61,131 bases of DNA from an uncultured Candidatus Saccharibacteria bacterium (lineage in GTDB: Bacteria > Patescibacteriota > UBA1384 > CAILIB01 > JAUSJZ01). The position numbers were made by a program, and so were the translations under genes. Shown here one piece after another: positions 688-57,450 of the stretch. Below the pieces are notes generated by a model that was given only the letters and a program-made list of their open reading frames with translations, ran no database searches and was not told the DNA's origin. Each line of letters begins with the position of its first letter. Position 1 is the stretch's first letter. Location: contig CAYQWZ010000007.1 of assembly GCA_964421635.1 (NCBI GenBank), positions 1 to 61,131 on the forward strand, given 5' to 3'.

Positions 688-2805
688 TCAATTCAGATCA
701 ATCACACCCCCCTCGAAGGATTGAACTGAATTGTCTGCGTTGCTGTTGGCTATCGGGAAACCATAGCGTCCACCAGGGCCACCGGCGTCTTGATGAATAC
801 GATGGATGCGGCCATGAACGAGCCAGATGCTGCCACCCAGCTCATAGGCACAGCCACCTTGGAAAAGCTGGCTCTCTCCCTTTCTGTGAGATACGCCAGA
901 TTCCATGTGGTACTGCTTCATTTGCTGCGGGAAGCCAATTCGCCGCAAGCCATCCCATTCGTCACTCCAGTACTTAGTGTTGAAGTAGGTGGTGATCTCG
1001 TACAGATTGACGTAGTGGAACATAGTCGCGCCCTCAAACAACTGGACTCGACCACGCGCTCCATTGATTCCAGACTCCCGATACTCAGCATTACTTATCG
1101 GAAATCCATTTTCACCAGCTTCCACACCTTTGACATGCCAATGAGAAGCAAAAGCCTCATTGACATAGCCGTATCCTCCACGGAAATGCGTTACATAACC
1201 GCCTTCCGTATGCAAGACATGACCTAGCTCACCACTTACACCTGAGCGCGCAAAGTCTCTCTGCGGCAAGATGGGGCAACCCATCATGCCAGTTGAGGCT
1301 CCGTAGCTCTGGTAGGCATCCCATAGACCTCCCTGAACACCAAAAACGTTGGTGCCAAGGTTGACCAAGATGCCACGAGCAAAGAGCTGGTAGTCATGCG
1401 GATAGTATGGAGTTATCTGCGAGACAATCGGGTCAGGATGATTATGCTGATGAACTGGGCCCAGAGCGTGTCCCAAACCACCAAGCCGTTGCCACTCTGC
1501 CCTGTACTTCACAGGATACGACCCACCTTCACCAGGTTGCCAATTGCCAGAATCAACTTGCGTTGAACCAGGCGTTGGGCTAGGACTAGACGGTGGGTCT
1601 GGAGTTGGGTTAGGAGTAGGCGGCAAATCATTCGCAGGCGGCGGATTTGGGCTTGGGTCAGGATTCGATGGCGGATCTGAAGGTTGCTCATTACTTAAGA
1701 TCTCTTTAACTTGATCAATAACCTTATCACTTTCTGACAGGCTTGTATGTGATTCACCAGTCATTTCATAATGTCGCCAATGACGACATTCATTTGCCAA
1801 GCCATTCCAGCTGGCATTAACAACTGCAACAATTCCATCACCGCCAGTATTTCTCCAATTGCCAGCAAGACTGTAGTAATCAGTGGAGGTTACAACCATA
1901 TTGCTTGGGCTGTTCAAGATATGAATGAAGGAGCTCGTGTGCAACATATCACGAGCAGCGTCCAAAATACCTTCTCTACTGAAAATGTTCATTATTGCCG
2001 ATATTTCAGGTACAGTATTTGTTATTAACAAAACTAAAGCTGAATATGTTGTTCCTGTGTGAGGTGTCCCTAGCGTAATAAGATTGTTCGTATGACGATA
2101 CATTCCATTACGCTCAACCAAATTCCGGCTTATTAAACCACCAAGGCTATGACCTATGATGTCAATGCCACCTGTCTCACCAGGAAAGTGGTCTGCAATT
2201 ACTTGAAGAACATCTCTCGTCATCGAATCAATCCCTTGCTTATAGTTGTACCCAATAGAAAGACATCTGTCGTAACGCCTAGTAGCTTTGAGAGCATCAC
2301 GCATTGTACTCATTCTATTTGCATTTGAAAGAATACCATGTAGGAGAACAACATTCTTACCGTGATAGTTGCGACCATTGTTGAAATCGAACAATTCAAC
2401 GGTCATTGGTCCATAAGGATCAACCTCAGCAGGATAAACCGAAAATGTTCGGTTGAGGTCTGCCCGTGAATTCGAGCCAACATTGAAGCTGATTTCCTGA
2501 TCACCTACCTCTGGCTGCAATAGACGACTATTTTCACCTTCAGTCATGATACCAACATACCAGCTACCTGGTTCAAGTTGGCTTATAGGTACAGAAACGA
2601 CTTCCTGTGTAACAACAGGGACTGTCACAGTCGGCTGTGATTCAACTATCTGAAGCTCGCCACTCTCATAGTTGTTGTTGGTATTGGAACTAGTATTCGA
2701 ATTGATGTTGGAATTAGTGTTGCTATTACTAGCACCACCTCCGCCACCACATGCTACAATCGAAAAAGTGAGCAGCAATAAAACTGCGCATAGCGTCCGT
2801 TTCAT
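688..2805 (-). CDS. secreted lipoprotein: alpha/beta-hydrolase (lipase/esterase) + Pro-rich linker + LGFP-like repeats
   Basis: Signal peptide with lipobox (FSIVAC), N/S/T-rich linker, nucleophile elbow GHSLGG, and linker PSDPPSNPDPSPNPPP. At least three C-terminal repeats of the form (I/Y)GFP...Q(L/S)F(E/Q)GG. Visibly GC-rich versus its neighbours. Confidence 0.7.
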   Translation of the reverse strand: MKRTLCAVLLLLTFSIVACGGGGGASNSNTNSNINSNTSSNTNNNYESGELQIVESQPTVTVPVVTQEVVSVPISQLEPGSWYVGIMTEGENSRLLQPEVGDQEISFNVGSNSRADLNRTFSVYPAEVDPYGPMTVELFDFNNGRNYHGKNVVLLHGILSNANRMSTMRDALKATRRYDRCLSIGYNYKQGIDSMTRDVLQVIADHFPGETGGIDIIGHSLGGLISRNLVERNGMYRHTNNLITLGTPHTGTTYSALVLLITNTVPEISAIMNIFSREGILDAARDMLHTSSFIHILNSPSNMVVTSTDYYSLAGNWRNTGGDGIVAVVNASWNGLANECRHWRHYEMTGESHTSLSESDKVIDQVKEILSNEQPSDPPSNPDPSPNPPPANDLPPTPNPTPDPPSSPSPTPGSTQVDSGNWQPGEGGSYPVKYRAEWQRLGGLGHALGPVHQHNHPDPIVSQITPYYPHDYQLFARGILVNLGTNVFGVQGGLWDAYQSYGASTGMMGCPILPQRDFARSGVSGELGHVLHTEGGYVTHFRGGYGYVNEAFASHWHVKGVEAGENGFPISNAEYRESGINGARGRVQLFEGATMFHYVNLYEITTYFNTKYWSDEWDGLRRIGFPQQMKQYHMESGVSHRKGESQLFQGGCAYELGGSIWLVHGRIHRIHQDAGGPGGRYGFPIANSNADNSVQSFEGGVIDLN

Positions 2806-2958
2806 GTGTGTTCTCCTCCTGTTCGGATTGCTCAGGTTCTAGCTCTAGTGAATTCAGAGCTTAACAAATTAGTAACAGATTTAGTCTGTTAAGTCAATTA
2901 TTGTGCTTGACAAATAAGTAAATTTATTGTAGAAGTGAAACAAGAAAGGAGACCGACA

Positions 2959-3273
2959 ATGGCCAGAGCCAAACGCAAAAGACATTTTGCTGGTGGCAAA
3001 ATCACGGACAGTCATTCCACTATCATTGATGCCGCTCGAGCTCCCGTTAGAGCCGCCGAAAAATCACCCCTCGTTAGCAAGATTTCCCTAAGAAGGATCA
3101 CTCGCTGTCGAGGAAGCGAGCGCCGAATTAAGTGCGTTCCCGTCAACGGAGGATTCCGAGCAACAATCGTTGGCTCTAGGAGTGTTCAAGACATCATGGT
3201 TTATCTCCACCAAGCCACCGAATCTAATCTGCGAGCCGTGCAAGCAATCATGGAAGAAGCTCTTGCCGCATAA
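2959..3273 (+). CDS. hypothetical basic protein (GC-rich cassette)
   Basis: ATG at 2959 lies 7 nt after AAGGAG; the track ORF starts at GTG 2935. A hairpin terminator follows. No recognisable motif. Confidence 0.45.
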   Translation: MARAKRKRHFAGGKITDSHSTIIDAARAPVRAAEKSPLVSKISLRRITRCRGSERRIKCVPVNGGFRATIVGSRSVQDIMVYLHQATESNLRAVQAIMEEALAA

Positions 3274-3279
3274 CCCCGT

Positions 3280-3312
3280 CTCATCTCAAACGCAATCGAG
3301 ATGAGGCTTTTT
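3280..3312 (+). terminator. intrinsic terminator
   Basis: ctcatctc / gagatgag 8-bp stem followed by TTTTT. Confidence 0.6.
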
Positions 3313-3314
3313 AT

Positions 3315-7950: not shown

Positions 7951-7954
7951 AAGT

Positions 7955-10009: not shown

Positions 10010-10087
10010 CTATCAAATTGTATCATAAAAAAAGTCGCCCTGCCGATAATGTCTACCGGCAAGGCTGAGCCCTTCTTGAAACCGACC

Positions 10088-10552
10088 TCACAGCTGCACA
10101 ACCTGGTTGACTGCGTTCTGGCCAGATACGACGACGGCGGTCAGGTACCAGCTGAAGACCTGCCCTTCCGGCTCCGTCGCTCCAACCTCGATCCAGGAGA
10201 TGAGTACATCCAGGCGGTAGTTGCCTCCTGGAAGTTCGCTCATTGTGAACCGAAGCTCGTTGTTTTCCTGGTCGAAAACGGGTTCGACTTCACGGCGGTA
10301 CTCAATGAAGTAATCACCGTTGGATCCCTGGAGAACAGCCGTTGCCACCACACCATCAGTGTGGATAGCTTCCGCGTTCAGCGCGGTAACATCAAGTACC
10401 ACGCATAGAACAGCATCGAACGGACCAACGCCGTCCGTTGTGCCACCATCCGCGGTCGTTCCACCAGCACCCTCAGCGAGTGGTCCGCTACCCCCACTAC
10501 CACAGGCCACCAGCGCGAACGCCGCCAACAGAGCCATCACGAAGATAGCCAT
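10088..10552 (-). CDS. GC-rich lipoprotein, hypothetical
   Basis: MAIFVMALLAAFALVACGSGG signal peptide and lipobox when started at ATG 10552; the track ORF extends to 10591. Strongly GC-rich. Confidence 0.5.
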   Translation of the reverse strand: MAIFVMALLAAFALVACGSGGSGPLAEGAGGTTADGGTTDGVGPFDAVLCVVLDVTALNAEAIHTDGVVATAVLQGSNGDYFIEYRREVEPVFDQENNELRFTMSELPGGNYRLDVLISWIEVGATEPEGQVFSWYLTAVVVSGQNAVNQVVQL

Positions 10553-10656
10553 CCGCGTATAAGCTCGCTGCACCACCATCTCCCACCCCATGGATTGGGG
10601 CTTCCTAACTTGCAGACTATACTATTTTACAGATTAGTACAACCCCTTTAAGGCTA

Positions 10657-13489: not shown

Positions 13490-13570
13490 GCCAGCCACTA
13501 AATTTTAGCGCTTGACAAAGCACAAGCACTAGTGTAGCTTGTTTTAAGTGCGAACGAAAAGTTCTCACGC

Positions 13571-13644
13571 GCTGGTGTAGCTCAGTCAGGTAGAGCAGCG
13601 GACCGAAAATCCGTGAGTCGTGGGTTCAATTCCCGTCACCAGCA
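13571..13644 (+). tRNA. tRNA-Phe (GAA)
   Basis: Hand-folded cloverleaf: acceptor GCTGGTG/CACCAGC, D stem GCTC/GAGC, anticodon stem GCGGA/TCCGT, loop CCGAAAA, T arm GTGGG-TTCAATT-CCCGT, discriminator A. CCA is not encoded. TTGACA at 13512-13517 lies upstream. Confidence 0.85.
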
Positions 13645-13645
13645 T

Positions 13646-13850
13646 GAGAGAGGGTCATGACCGCAGAGGGTGTAGTACAGGGCACTGTTTCACCGGCAGA
13701 TAAAAGCCCAGACTGCATGACAATAATCAGCTCCTCTTGTCCTCCGTCCCGGCACCGCTGATTATTGAGGTTAAAGTCCTCACCTCTCTCCTTAACCCGC
13801 AGGTCCTTCCCGGGTCTGCAAACTGCCTGGTTCGCTAGGCAGCAGCTGCA
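13646..13850 (+). ncRNA. candidate structured RNA of unknown class, co-transcribed with tRNA-Phe
   Basis: Nested complementary pairs: 13646-53 gagagagg / 13783-90 cctctctc; 13655-60 gtcatg / 13715-20 catgac; 13722-31 aataatcagc / 13757-66 gctgattatt. Local hairpin gagg-ttaaagt-cctc. GC-rich, with no RBS or plausible ORF. Confidence 0.35.
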
Positions 13851-13852
13851 CA

Positions 13853-13883
13853 CCGCCGCCCTTCGGGGCGGCGGTCTTTTTTA
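13853..13883 (+). terminator. intrinsic terminator
   Basis: ccgccgccc-ttcg-gggcggcgg stem followed by TCTTTTTT. Confidence 0.8.
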
Positions 13884-13891
13884 AGAAATAA

Positions 13892-14552: not shown

Positions 14553-14586
14553 CAAAGAAAACAGGCTCCCCACGAGGGGAGCCTGT
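14553..14586 (-). terminator. intrinsic terminator of the ssrA-like transcript
   Basis: Minus strand ACAGGCTCCCC-TCGT-GGGGAGCCTGT followed by TTTTCTTT. Confidence 0.75.
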
Positions 14587-14716
14587 CGTGGCGCTAGACG
14601 CAGCGGTTCTGCATCCAGTTGCTCAGGCTTTTAACCCGAGTCTATTCCGATGCCGCGGGTGGAACGACATCGGAACTTGGTTTCGTTTGGAGCCCCCTTT
14701 GCGAAGGCGCTATAGA

Positions 14717-14812
14717 TGGAGGTGGCGGCCTGCCTGCCGGCAGGCAGGGAATTGAACCCGCGTCCGAAAGCATGTGAGTTGAGAATCACTTTCGTCGACA
14801 CCATACACCCCC
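14717..14812 (-). ncRNA. tmRNA-like tRNA-like domain (TLD) only, interrupted by a 20-nt palindrome
   Basis: Minus strand reads GGGGGTG-TATGGTGTCGAC-GAAAG...CTTTC-GGAC-GCGGG-TTCAATT-C[insert]CCGC-CACCTCC-A. It has G3:U70, A73, and the tmRNA-type D-loop analogue and T arm. There is no pseudoknot or tag region between the P2a strands. Confidence 0.6.
14729..14748. repeat. 20-nt perfect palindrome CCTGCCTGCCGGCAGGCAGG, copy 1 (in the T stem of the ssrA-like gene)
   Basis: Identical to 57647-57666. Deleting exactly these 20 nt restores GCGGG-TTCAATT-CCCGC. Confidence 0.9.
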
Positions 14813-14826
14813 CTTATGACTCCTTC

Positions 14827-14854
14827 AAAATAGCAGATTGAGCCAATTTGTCAA
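14827..14854 (-). promoter_or_regulatory. sigma70-like promoter of the ssrA-like gene
   Basis: Minus strand TTGACA-16 nt-TATTTT, ending about 14 nt upstream of the GGGGGTG 5' end. Confidence 0.45.
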
Positions 14855-15199: not shown

Positions 15200-15228
15200 T
15201 TGACAAAAACCCTAAAATGTGCTACACT
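15200..15228 (+). promoter_or_regulatory. sigma70-like promoter of GC-rich island
   Basis: TTGACA-17 nt-TACACT. Confidence 0.55.
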
Positions 15229-15310
15229 TGCGCCGAGAATTAAGGATTGTTTTTGACCCTCTGCCAGGTCTTATCCCCTTCATTTAATACAAATCAAAGG
15301 AGGATTGGCA

Positions 15311-15430
15311 ATGAGACCTGATAGAGGAGCAAAAGCTCCACAATCTTCCTCTCACCAGAGAGGAGTCAACCACATCCCTGTTGGGATGGCCGGCCTCGGC
15401 CGGTTACGATTCCTGGAGGAATCACCATGA
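15311..15430 (+). CDS. 39-aa leader ORF, translationally coupled (ATGA) to the next gene
   Basis: AAAGGAGG lies 7 nt upstream of the ATG. Its stop TGA overlaps the ATG of the 15427 ORF. Found by hand; too short for the ORF track. Confidence 0.3.
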   Translation: MRPDRGAKAPQSSSHQRGVNHIPVGMAGLGRLRFLEESP

Positions 15431-16122
15431 GCGACAAACTGTACAGTGAACGTTTCAGTATAGCGCTTATCATGGCTGCCCGTGCGGCTGAGGTAGTCGC
15501 TAGGCAACTGATCGCCGAGTTCCCCAGTTTCAAAGGGATCTGGAGTCTCCCCTACCAGGTAGACGAGATCGGCAACGAGCTGAACTTGCGGTTCAACGGT
15601 GCCAATTTCATTGGTTTGACCTGGTGGGAGTTCCGTTATCGCGGTTCGATCCGGGTGACCATCGGTATCGCTAACCTGATGATGCTTCCTCGATGGTCCG
15701 GGTACAACTCTCCGGGTCCATGCAAGAGAGCCGTTGTAGGGTTTAAGGTCCAGATCGCCGACCAGGCGGTCATCGACCTTGACGCTCAAGGGCTCTTCAG
15801 ACGGGTCGCTGGCATCTGGGACGGAAAGAGTATTCCGACAGTAGTTGATCCTGTCCTGTTCAAGGGAAACGTCTACGTCGTTCCCTCGTGGGCTTACGGC
15901 CCGCGCGTCAGGCTGGATACCGAGGACGAACTCGACCTGATGAAGGAAATCTGCGGAGTCGAAGCCTTCCCCTTCGACCGGCTCAGCGCTGAGTCGTTGT
16001 GGGAAGCGGCGAGGCAGGCGCGAGAGCGCTGCGTCGAGCGGCGCGCCGAGTGGGAGGCGGCCGAGACGGCAAGGCGAGCGCGCGGCTGGGGCGCTGATGT
16101 CGCCTTCGAAGAAGAGGAGTAA
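15427..16122 (+). CDS. hypothetical protein (GC-rich)
   Basis: 231-aa ORF with GGAGG upstream and an E/R/A-rich C-terminal tail; no motif recognised. Confidence 0.55.
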   Translation: MSDKLYSERFSIALIMAARAAEVVARQLIAEFPSFKGIWSLPYQVDEIGNELNLRFNGANFIGLTWWEFRYRGSIRVTIGIANLMMLPRWSGYNSPGPCKRAVVGFKVQIADQAVIDLDAQGLFRRVAGIWDGKSIPTVVDPVLFKGNVYVVPSWAYGPRVRLDTEDELDLMKEICGVEAFPFDRLSAESLWEAARQARERCVERRAEWEAAETARRARGWGADVAFEEEE

Positions 16123-16309
16123 TACAGGAGGTCCGGGCTCGGCCCGGATCTCCCATCCTACCTCGGTTGAACCACGAACTAATGGTCCAACTGAGATAGG
16201 GTGAATAGCCCAACCTTACGACGGATAGCGCGGGGTAGCTACCGCTTCTATCTGTCATTTGAACAACTAAACGGCCTGAGAAGGCCTGCCTGAGAAAGGC
16301 AACAAGATC

Positions 16310-16609
16310 ATGCTCACCTGTTTGGACGCATTGCGTGAGGGCGCCGATGTTCTCGGCGCCCCCAGCCCCATCAACGCCGAGGCGTGCGCCCGACTGGCCG
16401 AAAGGCTGGAAGAGGCGTTCGACCGAAAGCAGGTCATCATCGGTCGCATCGACGATGCCGACCACCTCGGCTCAGTCAAGCTGATCGACACGAACTGCGT
16501 CAACGTTGACGTGGTCAGAGTCGATAAGCAGGGCCGCGAGCAGGGCGGAGCCATGTCCATCGCGGCCCGCCTGTTCAGCATCAGCGCCACGGTGCCGGCC
16601 GCCGTCTAG
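16310..16609 (+). CDS. hypothetical protein (GC-rich)
   Basis: 99-aa ORF on the same strand as its neighbours, followed by a terminator; no motif. Confidence 0.4.
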   Translation: MLTCLDALREGADVLGAPSPINAEACARLAERLEEAFDRKQVIIGRIDDADHLGSVKLIDTNCVNVDVVRVDKQGREQGGAMSIAARLFSISATVPAAV

Positions 16610-16681
16610 GCGCGCCGGCTCGACGACCCAAAAGCACCAAGGAGGTGCCGAAATGTTGTAGCTAGACTACGACAACCAACG

Positions 16682-16709
16682 GACCCGCCGCCAGGCGGGT
16701 CTTTGTTTT
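16682..16709 (+). terminator. intrinsic terminator
   Basis: gacccgcc-gcca-ggcgggtc followed by TTTGTTTT. Confidence 0.75.
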
Positions 16710-16874
16710 AATAAAAAAGTTATCAACTTGACTTATATCCTTTTTCGTTATATACAGATTGGGAAGGGTGTGTTGATCGTCGTCCTGATACCTACTCGTC
16801 CGATAATACCGATCAGCACACTTAGTCACTCGATCCTCGAGAGGTAGCACCCGCACGCTGCCTCTCTTTTTTTA

Positions 16875-16903
16875 TTGACACTAACAATCCTTTCTGATAA
16901 ATT
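16875..16903 (+). promoter_or_regulatory. sigma70-like promoter
   Basis: TTGACA-17 nt-TAAATT. The track ORF 'start' at 16875 is the -35 box itself. Confidence 0.5.
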
Positions 16904-16937
16904 AGTCTTTGTCGTGCAAAAAAGGAAGGAGCGTGAT

Positions 16938-17150
16938 TTGAGCAACGAAACAGTATACGCGCGTCACACTCGTACAGGTGAAGGCTGGCTAGAGAAGGAT
17001 GGTCAGATGCATAGTTGTATTGACGGTCGACCAACAGGTAGATCGTTGAGACAGATGCAAGCTGACCCCAACATCGGCCGCCATCTGGAGGTCTGTGACC
17101 CACCCCCCAACACCCTCGAGCTCTTTTCAGAAGCGCTCGCTCGGGTCTGA
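16938..17150 (+). CDS. small hypothetical protein (GC-rich)
   Basis: In-frame TTG lies 7 nt after AAGGAAGGAG and downstream of the promoter; no motif. Confidence 0.35.
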   Translation: MSNETVYARHTRTGEGWLEKDGQMHSCIDGRPTGRSLRQMQADPNIGRHLEVCDPPPNTLELFSEALARV

Positions 17151-17435
17151 CAACGACACACCTCAACGCTTCGGCTTTCAGTCGGGCGTTTTTTAATACA
17201 AAAAACCAATCGTCGTGGTGACATCCTGTTAGCTAAGTGGGTGGTCGCATTCAGAGGGCGAGCCGAGTCGATTCCCCCATCAGATATTGACCTCCCGTCG
17301 CAAATAGAATTGATAACTCACATATGACGATTGGTAATAATATTGTAGCAGATCTTCATTAAAAATAGATTAACAATTGTCCACCGAAAAAAACTGCCTT
17401 TTTCCCTCTCTCCTGCTATACTGAAAGGCAGAAAT

Positions 17436-25510: not shown

Positions 25511-25590
25511 TACTTTCGTGACTGTGCCATAGCACTTTTTAGCCGTTTTTTTGTACTGTTTGAAGCTCTTTTTGAAGCTCCTACAACACC

Positions 25591-25619
25591 TTGACAAAAG
25601 GCCAATTTTTTGCTATAAT
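25591..25619 (+). promoter_or_regulatory. consensus sigma70 promoter
   Basis: TTGACA-17 nt-TATAAT exactly. Confidence 0.7.
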
Positions 25620-25701
25620 CACTCTGACAATAAGGTGGTAAGCCTAATGTCCTACTGGGCATCGGGCCCGGAAGAGGTTTAAGTCCCACGGAGGGCAAAC
25701 G

Positions 25702-26034
25702 ATGTTTGCGCACGTGATTATGCTAGCCGGTTCTCGGCTAAGCAGAAGCGCACCCGAGTGTGTTCTCGGGTATCAGGGTGAGGGCGAGAGCATGGAGGCC
25801 TGTTACCTTCGGGTTTTGGCCACCATCAGCCAGGCGCAAAAGGGAGGGTACATGCCCTCCATCCACCTGCTCTTCCCTGAGCAGGTGACCCCTGAGCTGC
25901 TCGAGGAATTCAAACGCCTCGAGGCAAGTCTTGATCGGCCGCCCAAGATAGCGGCCGACCCCGAGCAACGCGGGTTCATGAGTCTCTTCAGCTCTGAGGA
26001 GTTCGAAGAGATTCTAGCATCCATCGACGCTTAA
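25702..26034 (+). CDS. hypothetical protein (GC-rich cassette)
   Basis: ATG lies 7 nt after GGAGGG, with an 80-nt GC-rich leader. Acidic C-terminal half; no motif. Confidence 0.5.
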   Translation: MFAHVIMLAGSRLSRSAPECVLGYQGEGESMEACYLRVLATISQAQKGGYMPSIHLLFPEQVTPELLEEFKRLEASLDRPPKIAADPEQRGFMSLFSSEEFEEILASIDA

Positions 26035-26042
26035 CAACCAAC

Positions 26043-26068
26043 GGGGCGGCGCGCAAGCGCCGCCCTTT
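26043..26068 (+). terminator. intrinsic terminator
   Basis: ggggcggcgc-gcaa-gcgccgccc followed by TTTGCTATTT. Confidence 0.7.
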
Positions 26069-26069
26069 G

Positions 26070-35750: not shown

Positions 35751-35779
35751 TTGCACATAACTATATTAGCTTCTAGAAT
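35751..35779 (+). promoter_or_regulatory. sigma70-like promoter
   Basis: TTGCAC-17 nt-TAGAAT. The track ORF 'start' at 35751 is this -35 box. Confidence 0.5.
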
Positions 35780-35816
35780 ACATTTAGCTCATACGACAAC
35801 GAACAAGGAGGACCGA

Positions 35817-36947
35817 ATGAGCCCTGCACCTGAAAATGCCACCGAGTATGACCCCCAGCTTCACCGTTGGCCTCACTGTGTTTCAGCTCATCAGATTACA
35901 CGCAGCGTTTTTGAGTTAATTCAAAAACGAGCTGCTCAAATGCTAGACCAGCTTGAAAAACGCGACTGGTCACGAATGCATGGAGAGCTATTTGATAATA
36001 TTCCGCGGCAATCTCTAGCCAACACCATTACTGCTGGTCTTATCTTAGAGCCTTCAACTCGTACACAAACCAGCTTTAATGTTGCCGCGGCCAGACTGGG
36101 TTCCTCCCCTCAAGTACAGATGATTGACCCTGCTAGAACTTCAATGGGTAAAGCTGAGCGCTGGGATACGACCGTTAGAGTTCTGTGCCAATATCACCCT
36201 GATGCTTTTGTGTTGAGAACTCCCCATGTCGAACAGGCTTATCAGGCTGCTGCCCTGTTTGGTGACTATACAGGCAGCCACCATCCGAATACCGATAAGA
36301 GCTGGGGAGTATTCATTAACGCCGGCAATGGGTCTGATCAGCACCCCACTCAAGCTCTGCTAGATATGTTTGCCATACACAAAGTGTGCGGTACCATTAA
36401 TGGCTTGCGTATTTTGATTGCTGGCGACATTGGTCGTGCCAGAACAGTCAATTCACTACTGATTGCCCTAGCTCAAGCAGCCATTGACTCCACCATTGTC
36501 ATAGTCGCCCCCGTCATTGACGGCTATGAACTATCGCCTCCCGCGCATGTAATGCACAAGCTTGACGAGGCAAACCTAAACGTTCAGGTTGCTCAAGTAA
36601 GAACCAGAGATGAGTTTGTTGACTTAGCGAGACAGGCTGACGTTGGCTACTGGACCAGACTGCAAGTTGAGCGTTATAGAGACGAATTGCCACCCAGCTT
36701 CGCTGCAGCCAATGCAAGTCTAATACAGCTTTCACCCGAACTGCTTGACCAAACTGAAATCTTGGCTTTTCATCCTATGCCCTATACAGATGAGGTCTGC
36801 CGAGAAGTCGAAGGGCACCACCAAGTCATGTTTCTGAAACAGGCCGGATGGGGCGTTCCCGTTCGCATGGCTCTACTAGAGCTTGCTATCTTACACCCGA
36901 AACAATTACGAGATGCCTTCGAACAAGATACGAGAGAGTCAGCGTAA
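35817..36947 (+). CDS. aspartate/ornithine carbamoyltransferase family protein (ATCase-like)
   Basis: STRTQTSF (STRTR motif), HPTQALLD, FHPMPYTDEV (compare HPLPRvdEI of ATCase). ATG lies 6 nt after AAGGAGG. Higher GC than the flanking mur genes. Confidence 0.65.
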   Translation: MSPAPENATEYDPQLHRWPHCVSAHQITRSVFELIQKRAAQMLDQLEKRDWSRMHGELFDNIPRQSLANTITAGLILEPSTRTQTSFNVAAARLGSSPQVQMIDPARTSMGKAERWDTTVRVLCQYHPDAFVLRTPHVEQAYQAAALFGDYTGSHHPNTDKSWGVFINAGNGSDQHPTQALLDMFAIHKVCGTINGLRILIAGDIGRARTVNSLLIALAQAAIDSTIVIVAPVIDGYELSPPAHVMHKLDEANLNVQVAQVRTRDEFVDLARQADVGYWTRLQVERYRDELPPSFAAANASLIQLSPELLDQTEILAFHPMPYTDEVCREVEGHHQVMFLKQAGWGVPVRMALLELAILHPKQLRDAFEQDTRESA

Positions 36948-36974
36948 ACAAACGCTTGTCTGCAATCTTCTCTA

Positions 36975-37002
36975 CCGCACCCATACTGGGGGCGGTTTTT
37001 TT
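36975..37002 (+). terminator. intrinsic terminator
   Basis: ccgcaccc-atact-gggggcgg (one mismatch) followed by TTTTTTT. Confidence 0.5.
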
Positions 37003-37052
37003 ATTGACTGTTAAAAATAATCAATGTAACCTGTACCTAGAGGAGAACACTA

Positions 37053-37649
37053 ATGGCAAGTCTAGCGGCTGGTATCGAAAGTGGGCTCAAAGGTGAGCTA
37101 CTTGTTAAAGAGTTATTGATAAGGTTTTTGTCAGACTTTATTGCTTGTTTACAACAAAAACGACCTCTAGCACAACAAATAGCAAGCATGCAAGGAACGC
37201 TTAGACAATTCGCTAGCTCTGTTGATAATTCTCTTTCCACATTCACTGAAAGCATTCCTGGCTCTTTGGTTGAACGCGATGTTTTGGCCGACCTCGAAGA
37301 GCTAAGAGCGAAGAACATTGATACTTGGCTTTACTACCTAGGACTAGCCATTGAGGCTGACTTACTTGACAGACTTCAGCCACTATCACCCTTCCCAATC
37401 TGTGCCCACATCATAATCTTGGTCGATTACGGTCCCGTCGACCATAAACTGGGCAAGCCGTTTGAAAATATGCTAGCAGAAGGCTTACCTAGATATTCCT
37501 GGAACAACGATTTTCTGGCACAGAACTCGAGACTTTACGTAATCGTTCTGCCAGATTTTGTCTATTTAGATGTCGGCAGAGGTACATATTCCCTAAGCCG
37601 CCCAAATGAACTCAGAAGAAACAACCGGCCAATCCCACCGCCCTCTTAA
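37053..37649 (+). CDS. hypothetical protein
   Basis: 198-aa ORF preceded by TTGACT-17-TAACCT (37005-37033) and GAGGAG; no motif. Confidence 0.45.
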   Translation: MASLAAGIESGLKGELLVKELLIRFLSDFIACLQQKRPLAQQIASMQGTLRQFASSVDNSLSTFTESIPGSLVERDVLADLEELRAKNIDTWLYYLGLAIEADLLDRLQPLSPFPICAHIIILVDYGPVDHKLGKPFENMLAEGLPRYSWNNDFLAQNSRLYVIVLPDFVYLDVGRGTYSLSRPNELRRNNRPIPPPS

Positions 37650-37664
37650 ATGAGGGCGTTTTTT
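37639..37664 (+). terminator. intrinsic terminator
   Basis: cgccctc-ttaaat-gagggcg followed by TTTTTT; the stop codon lies in the loop. Confidence 0.6.
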
Positions 37665-42830: not shown

Positions 42831-42859
42831 TTGACATTGGCACCATTTTATGCTAAGGT
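42831..42859 (+). promoter_or_regulatory. sigma70-like promoter of GC-rich cassette
   Basis: TTGACA-17 nt-TAAGGT, followed by an approximately 170-nt hairpin-rich leader. Confidence 0.5.
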
Positions 42860-43037
42860 AAACGCGCCAATCAAGGTTGGTGCCCAAACACATAAGGGGC
42901 GCACCTTAACAACTGAGCCTGTACAGGTAGGCCTGTTGCAGGATTGTTCAAGACTGTCCGCATTTGTTACGCCGCGGACAAACCTGTAGCCCCAACCTGG
43001 GGCAAACCCCCTTCGTGGGGTAAGAAGACGTGCAAGA

Positions 43038-45119
43038 ATGAGTAGCATCAGCATCGAGTTCGGTGGTAAGGTCTATGACCTCGCCGAACTTCAACGAGAT
43101 GTCATCAGCCGCAGCACCGCCGAGCTGCGTGCAGGAGGTCTCAGCCGTAGCGATGCCGTCGAGCATCGCCATGAACTGTTCACCCTTCGACAAACTCTGC
43201 GCGACCCGCACGACGAGCTAGTCGCGCAGATCAACGCCAAGAAGGTCGAGATCGAAGCCAAGAAGGCTGCGGTCAGGCGCGCCAGCACTAACAAGCCGGT
43301 TCGCCAACAGGAGCTGGCCGGTTTGGTCGCCGAGAAGCAGCTGATCGAGCAGGACATGGCCGCCATCACGGCGGTCATCGACCAGCTCGAGGAAGCTCTC
43401 CGTGAGCTGGCCATCGTCGACGACAAGGGCGACTACCTCAGCACCGTCCCCGACGACCAGTTCTCCACCAGTGACGGCGAGAACAGTGACGACGACGAGT
43501 TGCTGGACAGGCGTGAGTATCGGGAGCTCAACGAGCACCTGACCGTTCTGCGCTTCCCCAAAAGCGGCGTCGTTTACGCTCTGTATTTCCCCAGCTACAT
43601 GGGGAACCCTCACGAGTTCAACTCCCAGCAAGGTCAGAGTCTGATCATGATCGGTCAGAAGCAGGATAACGGTGAGCTTCCGCTTACCGCTGCCCATGAC
43701 CTGGTGGTGTTGCTGCTGCACCACACGGAAGATGAGCAAGACGGGGGCATCGCGGAGAACGTCGCCGAAGCCATCGTCGGCTACCTCATCGACGGTATTG
43801 ACCTGACCATGGACACGGTCGGGTTGGACACCGCCACACAGATGAGCCCTCGAGTGCAACAGTGGTGTGTCGCGCACGAGGAAGATCTCGAGGTCACGCA
43901 CACATCGGAGCGCTTCCGTCGTGTGTTGGTGCCCGAAGGGTACCGAGCCATCGAGTCGACCGAGCGTATTTGCGAGCCTCGGTACGGTTTCTTGGTCTGG
44001 CTGCTCAGCCCCGAAGACCAGGAAGATCTGCTCGCGAGCCTCGGGCTCAACGAGTGGCCTGAGGACGGCCTCTGGCCGGATTCGCCTCAGCAGTCGCCGC
44101 AGCGAGACAGTCGCCGCGACGAGCAGGTCAACAGCAACCGCTCGCACACTCGTGACGAGTGGCCGTCGCGACCCGCTGCTACCCACCCGGCTCAGCCGGT
44201 TCCGGTGAGCAGCAACGACAGCAGTAGCGACGACGAGAAACCCGACGAGATCCCCCCCGAAGAGCTGATCGTCGACATCACCAACACGGTGGTCGTGACA
44301 CACAGAGACCCGAGCTACAAGTTCACCGCGAGGGTCTTCAAGCTGGAACCTGGAGCGCGAGTGGTTGCTGACTACCATGTCAACTCGCTGGCGCGCTATG
44401 GAACGAGTCGGCCCAACCCGGATGTCCGAGGCACACGATGCATCAGCATCGCCGAGCCCTGCGTCATCGTGGTCGACGAGGTCAAGGGGTTCGATCCGGC
44501 AGAGGGTATGTTGGATGTTGCCAACATCATCTGGACCCTCGACTGGCAGGATGGAGACCACCACCTCATCAGCGGTCCCATCGCACTCAGCCCCGAAGGA
44601 ATGGAGCGGGCGACCGTATCGCTCAACAGCTCCTGCTTCCCCCGCTGGCCTCAGTACTTGGGTGATGAGTCTAGCATCACCCCGGTGATTCGCTGGGATA
44701 ACCAGCTCGTGGCATGTCTGGAGAGGCATGTCAAGAACACTCTTCGGGAGGGTGTTCCCAGCGCGAAGTTCCTGGTCGGTTGGGTGAACCCCGAGCAGGC
44801 GAAGCTCCACCCGCCACCGCCGCGTGACGAGCAGTACGACGATCGTCCGCAACCCACCACCCGTGGGCAGCGTGACGAGCAGCTGAGCCCCCCCGACGAG
44901 ATGACTCCCGCGGAAGCCGACGCGATCATTCGCGCGGCCGCCGTTCGTGAGAGTCATCGACAGGCCACCCAGCGGCAGCAGCCGCACGACGACGGTGGTC
45001 GCTACCAGCGCCGCGATGAGCCCAACGGTGGCAACGGTGGCTTCCGCGGCAGCAACGACAACAGCGGTCGCCCCCAGCGCCGGGGCGCCCGCCCCCGCCC
45101 CACCGACCGGTCGCGCTAG
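43038..45119 (+). CDS. large hypothetical protein (very GC-rich): coiled-coil N-terminus, acidic segments, R/G/D/Q-rich tail
   Basis: 693-aa ORF with the promoter upstream and a terminator downstream on the same strand. GC3-dominated codons. Tail is ...GGNGGFRGSNDNSGRPQRRGARPRP. No catalytic motif recognised. The start is uncertain (weak SD). Confidence 0.55.
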   Translation: MSSISIEFGGKVYDLAELQRDVISRSTAELRAGGLSRSDAVEHRHELFTLRQTLRDPHDELVAQINAKKVEIEAKKAAVRRASTNKPVRQQELAGLVAEKQLIEQDMAAITAVIDQLEEALRELAIVDDKGDYLSTVPDDQFSTSDGENSDDDELLDRREYRELNEHLTVLRFPKSGVVYALYFPSYMGNPHEFNSQQGQSLIMIGQKQDNGELPLTAAHDLVVLLLHHTEDEQDGGIAENVAEAIVGYLIDGIDLTMDTVGLDTATQMSPRVQQWCVAHEEDLEVTHTSERFRRVLVPEGYRAIESTERICEPRYGFLVWLLSPEDQEDLLASLGLNEWPEDGLWPDSPQQSPQRDSRRDEQVNSNRSHTRDEWPSRPAATHPAQPVPVSSNDSSSDDEKPDEIPPEELIVDITNTVVVTHRDPSYKFTARVFKLEPGARVVADYHVNSLARYGTSRPNPDVRGTRCISIAEPCVIVVDEVKGFDPAEGMLDVANIIWTLDWQDGDHHLISGPIALSPEGMERATVSLNSSCFPRWPQYLGDESSITPVIRWDNQLVACLERHVKNTLREGVPSAKFLVGWVNPEQAKLHPPPPRDEQYDDRPQPTTRGQRDEQLSPPDEMTPAEADAIIRAAAVRESHRQATQRQQPHDDGGRYQRRDEPNGGNGGFRGSNDNSGRPQRRGARPRPTDRSR

Positions 45120-45176
45120 CAAGCAACACTAGTCAACACCCCCTTCGAACGCGGATCCAAACCGCGTTCAACCAAA

Positions 45177-45206
45177 AGTCCCCCAGCTCCGGCCGGGGGA
45201 CTTTTC
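45177..45206 (+). terminator. intrinsic terminator
   Basis: agtccccc ... gggggact stem followed by TTTT. Confidence 0.65.
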
Positions 45207-45224
45207 ATTTACTCTAAATAACTG

Positions 45225-48515: not shown

Positions 48516-48800
48516 TTAGTTATCTAATAATAATTCTACAGCGTTTGAGTCTTGAATTGAACCAGGATCTTGAATTTGACCCCGTGTGTCAGAGCCCTGT
48601 AAATCTATGCCTGAAGCGGAACCCTGAATAGCCTGTCCGCCAGCCGCTCCAGTCGCATCTGTCGCCCCTTGAGAGCCGCCCGAATAATTAGCTGCTCCAC
48701 TTATTGAAGTAGTATTTTGGCCAGATAAAGTAATAAAAAGCCCAAAGCCTAAAACCACTACCCAGAAAGCTGATATTACCCATAAAATTCTTTGTCTCAT
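48516..48800 (-). CDS. small secreted/anchored G/S/A-rich protein
   Basis: N-terminal TM (ILWVISAFWVVVLGFGLFI) followed by a low-complexity region. Confidence 0.4.
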   Translation of the reverse strand: MRQRILWVISAFWVVVLGFGLFITLSGQNTTSISGAANYSGGSQGATDATGAAGGQAIQGSASGIDLQGSDTRGQIQDPGSIQDSNAVELLLDN

Positions 48801-52308: not shown

Positions 52309-52337
52309 TTGACATTCGCTACTTTAAAAGTTAATCT
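52309..52337 (+). promoter_or_regulatory. sigma70-like promoter
   Basis: TTGACA-17 nt-TAATCT. Confidence 0.5.
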
Positions 52338-52359
52338 ACAAGCGCGGAAGGAGAAACGG

Positions 52360-53100
52360 ATGTGCACCTCTGACGCACCCAAACCGAAACAAGGGTTTTT
52401 GGTCTATGTACTGGTAGCTCATATATCAACAGAAGCTGATATCAGATTCGGCAGCTGTTGGTCAAAAAAGCTCGGTGCAAGATATAGAGACCCGCAAGCG
52501 TTAGTTGGTTTTATGAGTCAACCAAGACTCGTTTTTGGTGTTGGCCACTGCGACACTCCAATGGAGTTTTTTCCTCCAGCTAATATCGTCGAAGACTTCA
52601 GTTCATCTCGCGGTTGGGCCCGCGATTGCGAACTGCGTGAAGTAACTGCCGAGAGAGCTGCTACGCTGCCTGCTTGGGGCACTTCACCCGAATGGGAAGA
52701 GTGGGAACGAAACAGAAGCCAAGCAGATGAAGGGACTGGCGAAGACATTCCGGATGATGAGGCTGATAGAGTTGTTATTACCGACACCAATGGCGAACAA
52801 CATAGAGTTAACTTGCGCGCAGTTGCTAATTTCAGATGGTCTGAATGTACTACATATTGTATACTGCCAATCAACTCCCTAGGTGGGAAGATTACTGTAG
52901 CAATAGCCAAAGACCAAATAGGAAGAGAAGGGGTTAGTATCATTGTCTTCGACATTCTAAGAATGTACGGCTACAACCCAGACAGCGTTTCATTTGTTTC
53001 TTGTTTCCGACATGAATTAGAAGAACTTATTATGCAACTTCAAGATCATTTTAAGCACAATGATGACAACCCCGATGAGCCCCCTCAAGAAATCGAGTAG
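52360..53100 (+). CDS. hypothetical protein (GC-enriched cassette)
   Basis: ATG lies 6 nt after GGAAGGAG and downstream of the promoter; the track ORF start at 52273 precedes the promoter. No motif. Confidence 0.5.
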   Translation: MCTSDAPKPKQGFLVYVLVAHISTEADIRFGSCWSKKLGARYRDPQALVGFMSQPRLVFGVGHCDTPMEFFPPANIVEDFSSSRGWARDCELREVTAERAATLPAWGTSPEWEEWERNRSQADEGTGEDIPDDEADRVVITDTNGEQHRVNLRAVANFRWSECTTYCILPINSLGGKITVAIAKDQIGREGVSIIVFDILRMYGYNPDSVSFVSCFRHELEELIMQLQDHFKHNDDNPDEPPQEIE

Positions 53101-53120
53101 ACGCTCAATTCGCAAACCCC

Positions 53121-53165
53121 AGACCGCTACCACCTGCCAACTGGCAAACCGGCGGTCTTTTTTTA
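53121..53165 (+). terminator. intrinsic terminator
   Basis: agaccgc ... gcggtct stem enclosing tgccaactggca, followed by TTTTTTT. Confidence 0.5.
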
Positions 53166-54512: not shown

Positions 54513-54664
54513 AGATTTATTGTAACAAATGGTTAGACTGAAGTGATCCTTTTCACCTCAGCCGAATGCTATCGCGTGCGGCATATCGGCTTTTTTAATA
54601 TAAAAAAGGGGCCCCGAGCAACGCGCTGTGCGTTATCCGAAGCCCAAATTGGTGCGAACCGAGG

Positions 54665-55126
54665 TTACGGCGCGGTAGGGGCAGGTACCGGATATGTCGA
54701 TCCGCCCTCCTTCAACTCCTCCAAGCTGATCGCCGGAAGAAGCTGAAGATCGTAGTCCTCCCGATTGACCGGAGGGACCGGCGGCTCGCTGATAACAATC
54801 AGCTCGACACCTTCGACGGGATTGCCATCGGCGTCGACCACTTCGGCCTTCGTCGGCGGAACCGACGAACTGACGACGATCACCGGTACATCGGACGCCG
54901 GCTGATACGGCATCATCGTCGACGATGTCGGCGATGTGTAGTATCCTGCCAGCGCTTCCTCGACGGCCGCCTTATAGGTGGCGTCCGCGGCGATCTCTTC
55001 CCGCTCCAAGCGGGCGGCCTCAGCCGCATTGCGCTCGTAGATGGCATCCCTCTCGAGACCCACCCAGAAAGCGCCGACAACCGCCATAATAACAACGACC
55101 GCACAGAACTCAGGCTTCCGGATCAT
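54665..55126 (-). CDS. membrane-anchored hypothetical protein (GC-rich cassette)
   Basis: N-terminal TM (FCAVVVIMAVVGAFWV), A/E-rich helix, P/V-rich region. Consensus promoter upstream and GGGGCCCC-TTTTTT downstream. Confidence 0.5.
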   Translation of the reverse strand: MIRKPEFCAVVVIMAVVGAFWVGLERDAIYERNAAEAARLEREEIAADATYKAAVEEALAGYYTSPTSSTMMPYQPASDVPVIVVSSSVPPTKAEVVDADGNPVEGVELIVISEPPVPPVNREDYDLQLLPAISLEELKEGGSTYPVPAPTAP

Positions 55127-55193
55127 TGTATCTCACCCTTTCTCGCCCCTTTGGGGCGAACAGAAAAACTTGTCTCCATCTGGAAACAGCGTT

Positions 55194-55222
55194 ATTATAG
55201 CAAATTCTGCCCTCTTTGTCAA
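55194..55222 (-). promoter_or_regulatory. consensus sigma70 promoter
   Basis: Minus strand TTGACA-17 nt-TATAAT exactly. Confidence 0.7.
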
Positions 55223-55536
55223 TCTGTAAATATATTAACCAAACTCAGTTAAACAAAAAAACTCCGCAACCTTAGCTACGGAGCCGGAAACATCTTCATC
55301 TATTTTCCAGCACCTCGACTTGCGCACTCGGCTGACTGATTACCCAAGCTTCAATCTCGTCTACCTTAGTCCTAATATTGTTTATCCAAACCACCATCGT
55401 TACGGTAAGACAAAGCTGCAACATAAGCAGTCCGAAAATAGACCCATTAGAGTGAGAATCATTCCTAGATACCTGCAGTGTAAACCAACCAAAGACTGCT
55501 ACAAATGCCCAACCAACAAAGGGGTCAAATTTGGCA

Positions 55537-55749: not shown

Positions 55750-55893
55750 CGCTCTTCTTTCTGGCTGTTCGTTTCACCCGAACGCCACCCGCAATCTACC
55801 AAAATTACCCTAAACAGTCAATATTTAGCTTACCTGGTGTAAAATTAGTATAGAAGTAGTAATCTCCCGAACCTGAACAAAAGGAGAAACCGC

Positions 55894-57450
55894 ATGCAGC
55901 TATTCCCCATGGACGACGCCTATATCCATCTGGTGTACGCTCGCAATATAGCCAATTACGGCCAGCTGACTTTCAACTATCCCACACTCGACACTGGCAT
56001 TGGCACCAGCAGCATTCTGTGGACACTCTTGTTGGCTGGCAGCATTGAGTTAGGCTTATCACCTATATTGGCCGCCCAAATGTTGGGCGCGCTGGCCTAC
56101 TTTTTGACCATCGCGCTATCTTACTGGCTAGCCAAATCGGCATACGAAAAGATACAAAGAAAACCCGTTGTTTGGCAGCCCATTTTGATTGCCATGCTGG
56201 TGGCTTGTTCTGGCAATCTCATTTGGTTTAGTGCCAGTGGCATGGAGACAATGCTCTGGCTCGCTCTTGGGTTATGCGTAATAAAGAGCTATCTCAACCG
56301 GCGCTTCACTTTGCTAGGAGTTTTTGGCGGTCTTCTGCTTCTCACTCGTATTGAAGGATTACTCTTGCTAGCAACAATTAGTCTTGTCGATGTTTGGCAA
56401 CGAAAAGGCGTTAATGCGCAATTGATTGGCTCATTGGCATTGGCTGGTTTAATCTTAACTCCATGGCTTGGCTATACTTTTGCCCATACCGGCCACCTGT
56501 TGCCCACTACTTTTGCTGGCAAAAGTCAGGCTCACATTCAGGCCGCTCAAACAATTAGCGGTGGATTTGCTCGATGGCTGATTTATCCGTCCGTTAGTCT
56601 TGGCTACTTCATCGCTTTCGTTTTTGGTGGCGTTTATCTGCCCGGCCCAAAACTGGCAATTCCTGGGCAGCTAGGGGCGCAAATAGGTGGTCTAGCAATC
56701 CTTGCATTCATAGCGCTGGCTTTAACACTTTTTGTTAGTTGGGCTGCTGTTAGGAAAATCAAATCCGAGTCGAAATATTTTCAAGAGTTTTGGTTGATAA
56801 TCGCTGGTTGGTTAATTTTTCATAATCTTGCTTACTGGATTGCTCTGCCCACTCCTGGCACTGCTAGCCGGTATCAGGTTTTGAATCACTGGGCGCTTTG
56901 GGTCCTAGTAGGATTCGGACTGACCTGCATCGCTAAAACAAAACAACGCCTGTTTATTCCTTTGTTTGTGGCGGCGGCACTCGTAAACTCGTTTTACTGG
57001 CAACAGGTTTACAATAGTAACCTGCGGCATATGAGCCAAGTCCGCTTAACCGCCGCCACTTGGGTAAACAAAGACCTGCCCCGAGATGCAGTGGTGGCTG
57101 TTCATGATATCGGTGCTACTGGCTGGATAATGCGGCAATCTTGTTTCGATTTAGGAGGATTGATTGACGAGGCTTTCAACGAATATCGGCAAGCTGGCAG
57201 ACTAACCGACTTGCTACGAGAACGCCAAGTTCAATTCATAGTTTTGCCGACCAAGCACAGTAGTGAGAACCAAGCCATCTTCGACTACCGCCAATCGCTT
57301 GGTCTAATCGATCAATCCTTCATTCTCAAACCAATCAAACATTTTGAAAATGACTACGACGATTGGCGATTCGGCGCTCTGCCAACTTGGAACGCTCTGC
57401 CCGCCGTTACTATCTATAAGCTTCAATTTCTGGAGCCCACCCCACCCTGA
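55894..57450 (+). CDS. polytopic membrane protein, GT-C-type glycosyltransferase-like
   Basis: N-terminal MDDAYIHLVYARNIANYG motif, as in GT-C/ArnT-like or arabinofuranosyltransferase-like proteins. About 12 TM plus a soluble C-terminal domain. Confidence 0.5.
   Translation: MQLFPMDDAYIHLVYARNIANYGQLTFNYPTLDTGIGTSSILWTLLLAGSIELGLSPILAAQMLGALAYFLTIALSYWLAKSAYEKIQRKPVVWQPILIAMLVACSGNLIWFSASGMETMLWLALGLCVIKSYLNRRFTLLGVFGGLLLLTRIEGLLLLATISLVDVWQRKGVNAQLIGSLALAGLILTPWLGYTFAHTGHLLPTTFAGKSQAHIQAAQTISGGFARWLIYPSVSLGYFIAFVFGGVYLPGPKLAIPGQLGAQIGGLAILAFIALALTLFVSWAAVRKIKSESKYFQEFWLIIAGWLIFHNLAYWIALPTPGTASRYQVLNHWALWVLVGFGLTCIAKTKQRLFIPLFVAAALVNSFYWQQVYNSNLRHMSQVRLTAATWVNKDLPRDAVVAVHDIGATGWIMRQSCFDLGGLIDEAFNEYRQAGRLTDLLRERQVQFIVLPTKHSSENQAIFDYRQSLGLIDQSFILKPIKHFENDYDDWRFGALPTWNALPAVTIYKLQFLEPTPP

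Follow-up and report, generated by a model that had tools for sequence, protein, structure and literature searches.

Phage morons are defined by a promoter and a terminator of their own and by a deviant GC content (PMC3594210). In the HK97/HK022 type they are autonomous units of one or a few genes, wedged between conserved genes and present or absent between relatives, and they often encode proteins of the envelope or of host interaction. Units of similar layout are found in the stretch of DNA studied here, contig CAYQWZ010000007.1 of an uncultured lake-water Patescibacterium (61,131 nt, GC content 42.6%; hereafter, the window), where they stand as GC-rich blocks in an AT-rich backbone. This mosaic of orphan, self-promoted genes is real, clade-specific and unusual. 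The original prediction, made from the sequence alone, had explained it by repeated acquisition from high-GC, perhaps actinobacterial, donors.

The units of the window share the above traits with morons, including envelope proteins among their products. However, morons lie in prophage, while the units described here are chromosomal and are placed among dcw (division and cell wall), aminoacyl-tRNA synthetase, PBP1a, radA and recJ genes; unlike morons, they match no PHROG family and have no relatives in INPHARED or IMG/VR. They are also 15–25 points richer in GC than their surroundings, and one of them persists across species without amelioration. The genomic islets of the Lawrence–Ochman model, which are acquired and then ameliorate, provide another comparison. 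Deviance that peaks at third codon positions, protein composition that lags behind GC content at third positions (GC3) and placement at synteny breakpoints are common to both; in contrast, the units of the window are GC-richer instead of AT-richer, searches revealed neither a donor nor a mobility gene or integration site for them, and a pair of orthologues remains unameliorated. Integron cassettes resemble them as short modules, mostly of one gene and many of no assigned function, but the units described here lack an integrase, attC-like end repeats and an array, carry their own promoters and are scattered. Lastly, GC-biased gene conversion raises GC3 locally against AT-biased mutation, reportedly by a few percentage points, whereas the rise in the window is +0.3 to +0.5. 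Recombination-linked differences in GC3 exist in most bacterial species tested, according to one survey (PMC4450053). Deviant composition serves as the standard flag and clock of horizontal transfer, with the expectation that acquired genes are AT-rich; here, a reduced, AT-rich genome of symbiont type bears a set of GC-rich, self-promoted genes that belong to no family.

A sliding scan in 500-nt windows gave a non-uniform, clearly bimodal GC profile, with peaks of 0.55 at 10001–10750, 0.53–0.62 at 15251–17000, 0.53 at 25501–26250, 0.60–0.65 at 43001–45250 and 0.57 at 54501–55250. Less than 100 nt to either side of the GC-rich blocks, GC drops back to 0.32–0.45. When 41 backbone genes were used as reference (GC3 0.336 ± 0.057), six open reading frames (ORFs) distributed in five units were found to be strong outliers (GC3 0.63–0.84, z 5.2–8.8). 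The codon positions of all six follow the order GC3 > GC1 > GC2, which is a coding pattern. The untranslated regions (UTRs) of the strong units are GC-rich too (0.49–0.74); hence, the bias is regional and goes beyond codon choice. The GC-rich stretch begins ~0–80 nt past the −10 box and stops at the terminator.

The mosaic that had been proposed is therefore sharp and real for these six ORFs, and the observation also stands for two RNA genes described below. Its “milder” blocks (35751–37664 and 52309–53165) and 688–3312 did not stand in the same way, as their GC3 z values are merely 1.0–1.9 and their third positions are not significantly GC-rich. Still, the proteins of the mild units have the same Lys-poor, Arg-rich composition as those of the strong units. 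In the mild units and in some orphans that had been counted as backbone, R/(K+R) is 0.68–1.0, versus 0.41 in the backbone, while GC3 is already 0.28–0.44. One such orphan, at 48516–48800 (94 aa), is common to the sister species described below, where it is 48% identical; it evolves fast, yet its GC3 is 0.28. Amelioration does happen, therefore, in this genome.

Three candidate causes or interpretations were discarded. Translational selection for GC-rich codons is ruled out by the GC3 of the L28 gene (0.28) and by the GC-rich untranslated regions. Adenine mutagenesis of the kind performed by diversity-generating retroelements (DGRs) is ruled out as the cause of GC-richness because the sense strand shows no shortage of A relative to T (AT skew +0.1 to +0.24). 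A purely non-coding RNA nature of the strong units is ruled out by the order GC3 > GC1 > GC2 and by protein conservation in the sister species. For the largest unit, an open frame of 693 codons at 63% GC has a calculated chance expectation of ~4e-9. Altogether, the long ORFs, the coding pattern of GC and the conservation at protein level indicate that the strong units are mRNAs.

Exact matches to TTGACA-N16-18-TAnnnT number 8 in the window, compared with 2.3 expected, and none of 100 shuffles reached that number. All eight stand before a listed block or an RNA gene (Table 1), and most have a TG-extended −10 box. The perfect TTGACA-17-TATAAT announced for 25591 and 55194 was borne out, with a 12/12 match at 25591 and at 55222 on the minus strand (55222–55194). 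Exact-consensus promoters chiefly precede strong units. A GC hairpin followed by a T-run, typical of a terminator, was found at most units, and a terminator or T-tract of the preceding gene lies upstream; one example is the terminator at 55285–55260, which precedes the promoter of the 54600–55222 unit. The proposal that almost every block carries consensus expression signals was mostly right; several promoters are near-consensus. Likewise, signals in the sequence agree with the view of autonomous units wedged among conserved backbone genes, the dcw cluster included. We predict on these grounds that the units are independent transcription units, each with its own promoter and terminator. The cassette was matched in no RNA run.

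Table 1. Units, RNA genes and other elements of the window. “Exact” denotes a match to TTGACA-N16-18-TAnnnT; transcription signals are predicted.
Positions	Strand	Transcription signals	Contents	Composition
688..2805	-		Lipoprotein with signal peptide (lipobox IVAC); hydrolase of lipase-like alpha/beta type (GHSLGG), linker rich in Pro, 5 xG[FC]P repeats	Mild enrichment; GC3 0.42; GC 0.52 in C-terminal half
2935..3273	+		Small ORF, longest frame 112 aa; no family	Mild GC enrichment
10037..10642	-	Weak promoter-like TTGTAC-15-TATAGT; terminator 10037-10065	167-aa lipoprotein ORF 10088-10591, lipobox LVAC, Gly-rich linker	Strong; GC3 0.63, z 5.2
13512..13875	+	Exact promoter 13512-13540; terminator 13852-13875	RNA operon: tRNA-Phe 13571-13644, structured RNA of ~210 nt	
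14553..14854	-	Exact promoter 14827-14854; terminator 14560-14587	RNA gene; tmRNA tRNA-like domain 14714-14812	
15200..16702	+	Exact promoter 15200-15228; terminator 16681-16702	Operon; ORFs 15311-15430 (39 aa), 15427-16122 (231 aa), 16310-16609 (99 aa)	Strong; GC3 0.71 (15427-16122), 0.84 (16310-16609)
16727..~16866	+	TTGACT-type promoter; terminator 16839-16866	Small unit; predicted transcript of ~110 nt	
16875..17186	+	Exact promoter 16875-16903; terminator 17170-17186	70-aa ORF 16938-17150 (TTG start)	GC3 0.54
25591..26068	+	Exact, perfect promoter; GC hairpin terminator	GGAGGG Shine-Dalgarno; 110-aa ORF 25702-26034	Strong; GC3 0.68
35751..37003	+	TTGCAC-17-TAGAAT; terminator	ORF 35817-36947, between murD and mraY	Mild
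37004..37664	+	TTGACT-17-TAACCT	198-aa orphan ORF 37053-37649	Mild
42831..45206	+	Exact promoter 42831-42859; hairpin terminator 45181-45206	693-aa orphan ORF 43038-45119, between mraZ and proS	Largest, strongest unit; GC3 0.78, z 7.7
52309..53165	+	Exact promoter 52309-52337	Orphan ORF, probably 52360-53100 (246 aa)	Mild; GC3 0.39
54600..55222	-	Exact, perfect promoter 55222-55194	153-aa ORF 54665-55126	Strong; GC3 0.72
57714..60977	-		Probable DGR; RVT_1, bAvd and Lcl_C domains	

The sharpness of the GC boundaries, together with a lower depth over some cassettes in the two runs of lowest coverage, might be taken as a sign that assembly or binning had fused GC-rich fragments of other organisms with an AT-rich contig into a chimera. 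Continuity across the junctions, which the original prediction had put forward as a check, was examined by comparing the window with per-run Logan contigs from four independent lake-water runs (X1–X4). Contigs of the four runs cross both junctions of the 43–45 kb unit with zero differences and with a depth similar to that of the flanks, and single contigs of 3.4–3.5 kb (X1, X2) cover the whole 54.6–55.2 kb unit, again with zero differences and with even depth. Over window positions 88–26122, a 39-kb ENA contig matches with 100% identity, and Logan agrees with it across the units located there; in addition, Logan contig L019 covers both junctions of the 10088 unit. The GC boundaries match promoters and terminators, and the sister-species architecture was independently assembled in three metagenomes. 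As contigs from independent runs cross the tested junctions, the mosaic is not a chimera, and the possibility of an artefact is effectively refuted.

Relatives were searched for by a scan with prolyl-tRNA synthetase (ProRS) and by cluster look-ups. A sister species was found in three groundwater/aquifer data sets (L020/L104, L103, L105, L102, L101). Its backbone proteins are 62–94% identical to those of the window, and its backbone GC3 is ~0.39–0.51. Two of its loci (L020/L103) harbor, beside proS, a colinear, syntenic orthologue of the 693-aa protein that is 41% identical over window residues 120–608 (E 2e-104). The GC content of this orthologue is 0.68 and its GC3 is 0.88; an independent run backs the arrangement. 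In the aligned part, the pair shows a nonsynonymous divergence (dN) of 0.54 and GC3 values of 0.77 in the window and 0.87 in the sister species, and the offset of GC3 over the backbone is about equal in the two species (+0.44 and +0.43). Backbone genes, in turn, have dN values of 0.03–0.24 and fourfold-site identities of 0.29–0.41 in the longer genes; their synonymous divergence (dS) is not computable or is above 2, with the exception of the L28 gene (72 codons; 0.89).

The above observation has a paradoxical side. The orthologue keeps a GC3 of 0.88 despite the saturation of synonymous sites in the flanks; hence, a single import preceding the split of the species should have ameliorated. Recent acquisition of the largest cassette is not borne out: at least one GC-rich gene has resisted amelioration through the separation of two species that live in different habitats, groundwater for the sister species and lake water for the window organism. 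The anomaly points to either repeated re-import or active maintenance of GC-richness. On a minor note, the JGI contig L020 carries two compensating 1-nt indels, at 5397 and 5523 in the 3′ portion of the orthologue, when compared with L103 and with Logan contigs of two runs, which alter the predicted C-terminus of the orthologue; the L103 version is the one that aligns with the window protein.

Comparison with relatives also provided evidence on presence and absence, another check that had been suggested. The junctions proS|mraZ, mraY|murD and PBP1a|radA are uninterrupted elsewhere. In distant relatives L022, L023 and L082, proS adjoins mraZ and mraY adjoins murD; the latter two genes are also adjacent in L095. 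Contiguity in distant relatives indicates that both insertions of the window are derived. In other lineages, different genes with native GC content occupy these junctions. The stops of radA and PBP1a lie directly against each other in L101, a locus of the sister species, so that the unit located at 25591–26068 between the converging ends of the two genes is absent there. The 10088 unit is missing from its junction in L102, where the site is occupied by unrelated genes. L102 has another GC-rich lipoprotein unit 1.5 kb away (8147; GC3 0.67), which is likewise equipped with a promoter and a terminator. Homology between the two lipoproteins is not claimed, as the BLASTP match (E 0.038) involves the signal peptide and linker only; nor was orthology found among the small ORFs that neighbour them.

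A 300-nt scan window was applied to 79 loci of 6 kb or more. GC-rich segments exceeding that length were confined to the window (with its duplicates L017/L018) and to sister loci; three other loci had one single 300-nt segment each. No cassette homologue was found in L021, whose ProRS is 69% identical and whose genome is ~56% GC. Among species representatives, the best FtsI match was 40% identical, which indicates that this collection does not hold a sister genome. Named matches of ArgRS (41–43% identity) were Woesebacteria, Berkelbacteria and WWE3; the named relatives are unclassified Patescibacteria, and the contig of one relative carries the label CAILIB01. Of the cluster members considered as an extension of the sister genome, P0158 and P0165 were rejected as unrelated short fragments, and P0156 covers murD and ftsW only.

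How might these patterns have arisen? The explanation that we tentatively favor is that the units are moron-like accessory modules, repeatedly imported from an unsampled GC-rich pool and now at different stages of amelioration. It is rated as the most likely one because of the graded composition, the presence/absence of units between species, and the transfers known among Patescibacteria (PMC12455944), where 109 events come from other Patescibacteria and 1 from Actinomycetota. The observations above show a foreign composition, the expression signals of discrete, autonomous units, insertion relative to other genomes, absence of homologues and an orthologue in the sister species; donor pool, mode of insertion and function are what we infer. 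The lake-water chromosome carries around a dozen short insulated units, scattered between conserved operons and built on a common plan: upstream terminator, near-consensus sigma-70 promoter with extended −10, Shine-Dalgarno sequence, one to three ORFs and hairpin terminator. Each unit would have been added at a gene boundary as an autonomous module, with a strong promoter that drives its expression separately from that of the adjacent genes. The protein units would be lineage-restricted, fast-evolving accessory genes, several of them for envelope proteins, and their GC-rich codons and UTRs and Lys-poor, Arg-rich products indicate that they were shaped under a GC-rich regime. The donor pool, which the databases searched do not contain, might lie in other Patescibacteria or in mobile elements of these, and is not recognisably actinobacterial. 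Strong units, mild units and fully ameliorated orphans would then form an amelioration series.

Several facts weigh against repeated import, besides the unameliorated orthologue. Acquired genes are normally AT-richer than the host genome (PMC4450053). The units showed neither an integrase nor a recombination site or border repeat, integrase and recombinase domains were detected in none of the ORFs scanned, and no repeat family is common to the unit borders. A donor did not appear either: the 693-aa protein matched only itself among 5.8 billion clusters and, in a scan without word filter, among 1.84 billion representatives; outside the sister species it has no homologue there. Furthermore, the different habitats of the two species lower the likelihood that related donors supplied both in parallel. 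In the main rival reading, the genes would be old, vertically inherited and fast-evolving, and a force confined to the transcription unit would maintain their GC-richness in place against the AT-ward mutation pressure of the genome. This force might be selection on the RNA or DNA, through transcript stability or evasion of AU-specific RNases or AT-binding proteins; it might also be repair or conversion with a GC bias, tied to very strong transcription or to frequent recombination. The high GC3 of both syntenic orthologues (0.88 and 0.78) despite saturated flanks, the same offset in two species from different habitats, the extension of GC-richness from promoter to terminator with UTRs included, the association of exact-consensus promoters mostly with strong units, and the confinement of the pattern to this clade all fit with maintenance. 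However, the L28 gene indicates that high expression as such does not drive GC-rich codons; GC3 is only 0.39 in the 52309 unit despite its exact −35 box; the shared orphan at 48516–48800 is fully AT-adapted in spite of its fast evolution; the fold of the 5′ leader of the largest unit is unremarkable (z −1.9); and the argument leans on a single orthologous pair. To our knowledge, no bacterial mechanism for GC maintenance of this size has been described. We consider maintenance in place, which would be new, rather unlikely. Its specific form, in which a process confined to the transcription unit would hold strongly promoted orphan genes at a GC3 of ~0.7–0.9, versus a neutral value of ~0.3–0.45, appears somewhat more doubtful still, and we know of no described case of such confined maintenance in bacteria.

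Capture of genes from an actinobacterial host by an episymbiont, with later addition of recipient-type promoters, was the explanation initially offered. GC contents of 58–63% and GC3 values of 0.63–0.84 fit many Actinobacteria, three of the products belong to the envelope, and the five repeats of the lipase-like lipoprotein (688–2805) are weakly LGFP-like. The esterase-plus-repeat layout of the latter presumably recalls corynebacterial PS1-type proteins. LGFP repeats had been presented as an actinobacterial hallmark; a literal LGFP motif, however, is absent from the window in every frame, and the repeats (n = 5, spacing ~58 aa) score 13 bits with Pfam LGFP (PF08310; E 0.13), below the cut-off of 22, in a gene that is only mildly GC-rich. 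Actinobacteria are expected to be well represented in the databases searched, and the 693-aa protein lacks a homologue in them. Pooled cassette proteins gave no tblastn match in 50,697 phage records, actinophages included, or in 72,556 plasmids, and two cassette proteins had no match in IMG/VR. Saccharibacterial episymbiosis, invoked as context, found no echo among the named FtsI and ArgRS matches, none of which was from Saccharibacteria. In 125 Patescibacteria genomes, Actinomycetota gave 1 of ~130 transfers (PMC12455944), and the groundwater orthologue argues against recent, habitat-specific capture. Hence, an actinobacterial origin seems highly improbable.

The choice between the two leading explanations has consequences. 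If repeated import is true, the units point to an unsampled GC-rich gene pool that feeds Patescibacteria, and their products provide candidates for host interaction, among them two lipoproteins, of which one is a lipase that bears LGFP-like repeats, and a Pro-rich protein anchored in the membrane. If maintenance is true, a new local determinant of base composition exists, and composition-based transfer calls would be misleading in such genomes: composition would then mark a functional class of genes, not the recency of transfer.

The family searches agree with the view that most products lack a recognisable motif. Ten cassette ORFs gave no match in NCBIfam (above cut-off), PHROGs or PADLOC, and Pfam domains were found in two mild enzyme genes only. 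One of them is 688–2805, with matches to DUF676/Palm_thioest/PGAP1 and a lipase motif that agrees with PDB 1qge. The other, 35817–36947, is a divergent aspartate-carbamoyltransferase-like gene that matches Pfam OTCace_N/OTCace and scores 179 bits with TIGR00670 (cut-off 237). The 693-aa protein has a coiled-coil N-terminus, two conserved globular regions and a basic, RGG-like tail; its unit starts with a 5′ leader of ~180 nt (GC 0.55), whose fold is the one mentioned above. Single-sequence AlphaFold2 yielded a pLDDT (predicted local distance difference test) of 32 for its C-terminal region and of 47 for the 231-aa ORF. The 153-aa product of 54665–55126 combines a membrane anchor at its N-terminus with an ectodomain rich in Pro, and is, together with the two lipoproteins, one of the three envelope proteins detected.

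The stretch 15200–17200, previously considered a single gene, comprises at least three units, with four or more ORFs. Its upstream ORF of 39 codons (15311–15430) has a strong Shine-Dalgarno sequence, and its stop overlaps the ATG of the 231-aa ORF (ATGA), an arrangement that suggests translational coupling.

Structured RNAs are GC-rich in AT-rich genomes, a property on which GC and intergenic screens for non-coding RNA are based. Two blocks that had been listed as cassettes, 13645–13885 and 14553–14812, turned out to be ordinary GC-rich structural RNAs of this kind, as they are non-coding, fold strongly, and carry a promoter and a terminator of their own; the remaining units differ in having long coding ORFs and conserved protein. 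The RNA at 13645–13885 (~210–240 nt; fold z −3.98) is predicted to be co-transcribed with tRNA-Phe and matches no Rfam family. In sister locus L102, the tRNA-Phe and RNA unit is missing between the M50 and VTT genes. The RNA encoded by 14553–14812 on the minus strand resembles transfer-messenger RNA (tmRNA; Rfam RF00023) in the tRNA-like domain only, with 43 bits, below the cut-off of 47, and E 1.8e-15. It has 14 nt in place of 308 interior positions of the model, and ARAGORN detected no tmRNA in the window. With a sub-threshold score and a replaced interior, it is not classified as tmRNA. Its 3′ tail, made of ~150 nt of hairpins, is conserved in the sister species (L102 1–180).

A 20-nt GC palindrome, CCTGCCTGCCGGCAGGCAGG, occurs twice in the window. 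One copy (14724–14743) sits in the T-loop of the tmRNA-like RNA and is not in the sister-species copy. The other (57650–57669) occupies the D-loop of a partial tRNA-Ile, a truncated duplication of its 5′ half that immediately precedes, on the upstream side, the complete tRNA-Ile. The palindrome has the look of a very small hairpin insertion element whose targets would be tRNA-like loops. A different repeat was observed in the sister species, between a SIS-domain gene and proS (L103 2520–2750, equivalent to L020 4230–4380), where three copies of ~50 nt share the core CTCCGGGAATTTGGGCA. Logan unitigs at these repeats have a depth of 23–83, compared with 11–12 in the flanks, which indicates a dispersed multi-copy element; the motif is absent from the window.

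Other loci deserve mention. The gene at 49339–51486 (+), downstream of a PadR regulator gene, encodes a 715-aa protein whose sole domain match is a C-terminal, pseudopilin-like T2SSG. The region 5619–8644 contains RimK-like ATP-grasp, ATPgrasp_ST and 7TM transglutaminase-like genes that are 81–90% identical in the sister species, and a possible interpretation is that they form a peptide-modification system.

At the end of the window lies a probable DGR with a reverse transcriptase gene (57714–58460, possibly extending into ORF 58325–58849) and a bAvd gene (59052–59426). Its putative target gene encodes a 505-aa protein with a Lcl_C/lectin-like C-terminus and contains a 237-nt internal tandem repeat. 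This gene accounts for an additional GC-rich stretch at 59.5–60.5 kb: the protein is rich in Gly, Thr and Ala, and the GC excess is at second codon positions, not third. A candidate variable repeat (59457–59587) is only 64% identical to the candidate template repeat (58782–58915), and 25 of the 45 mismatches are at template adenines.

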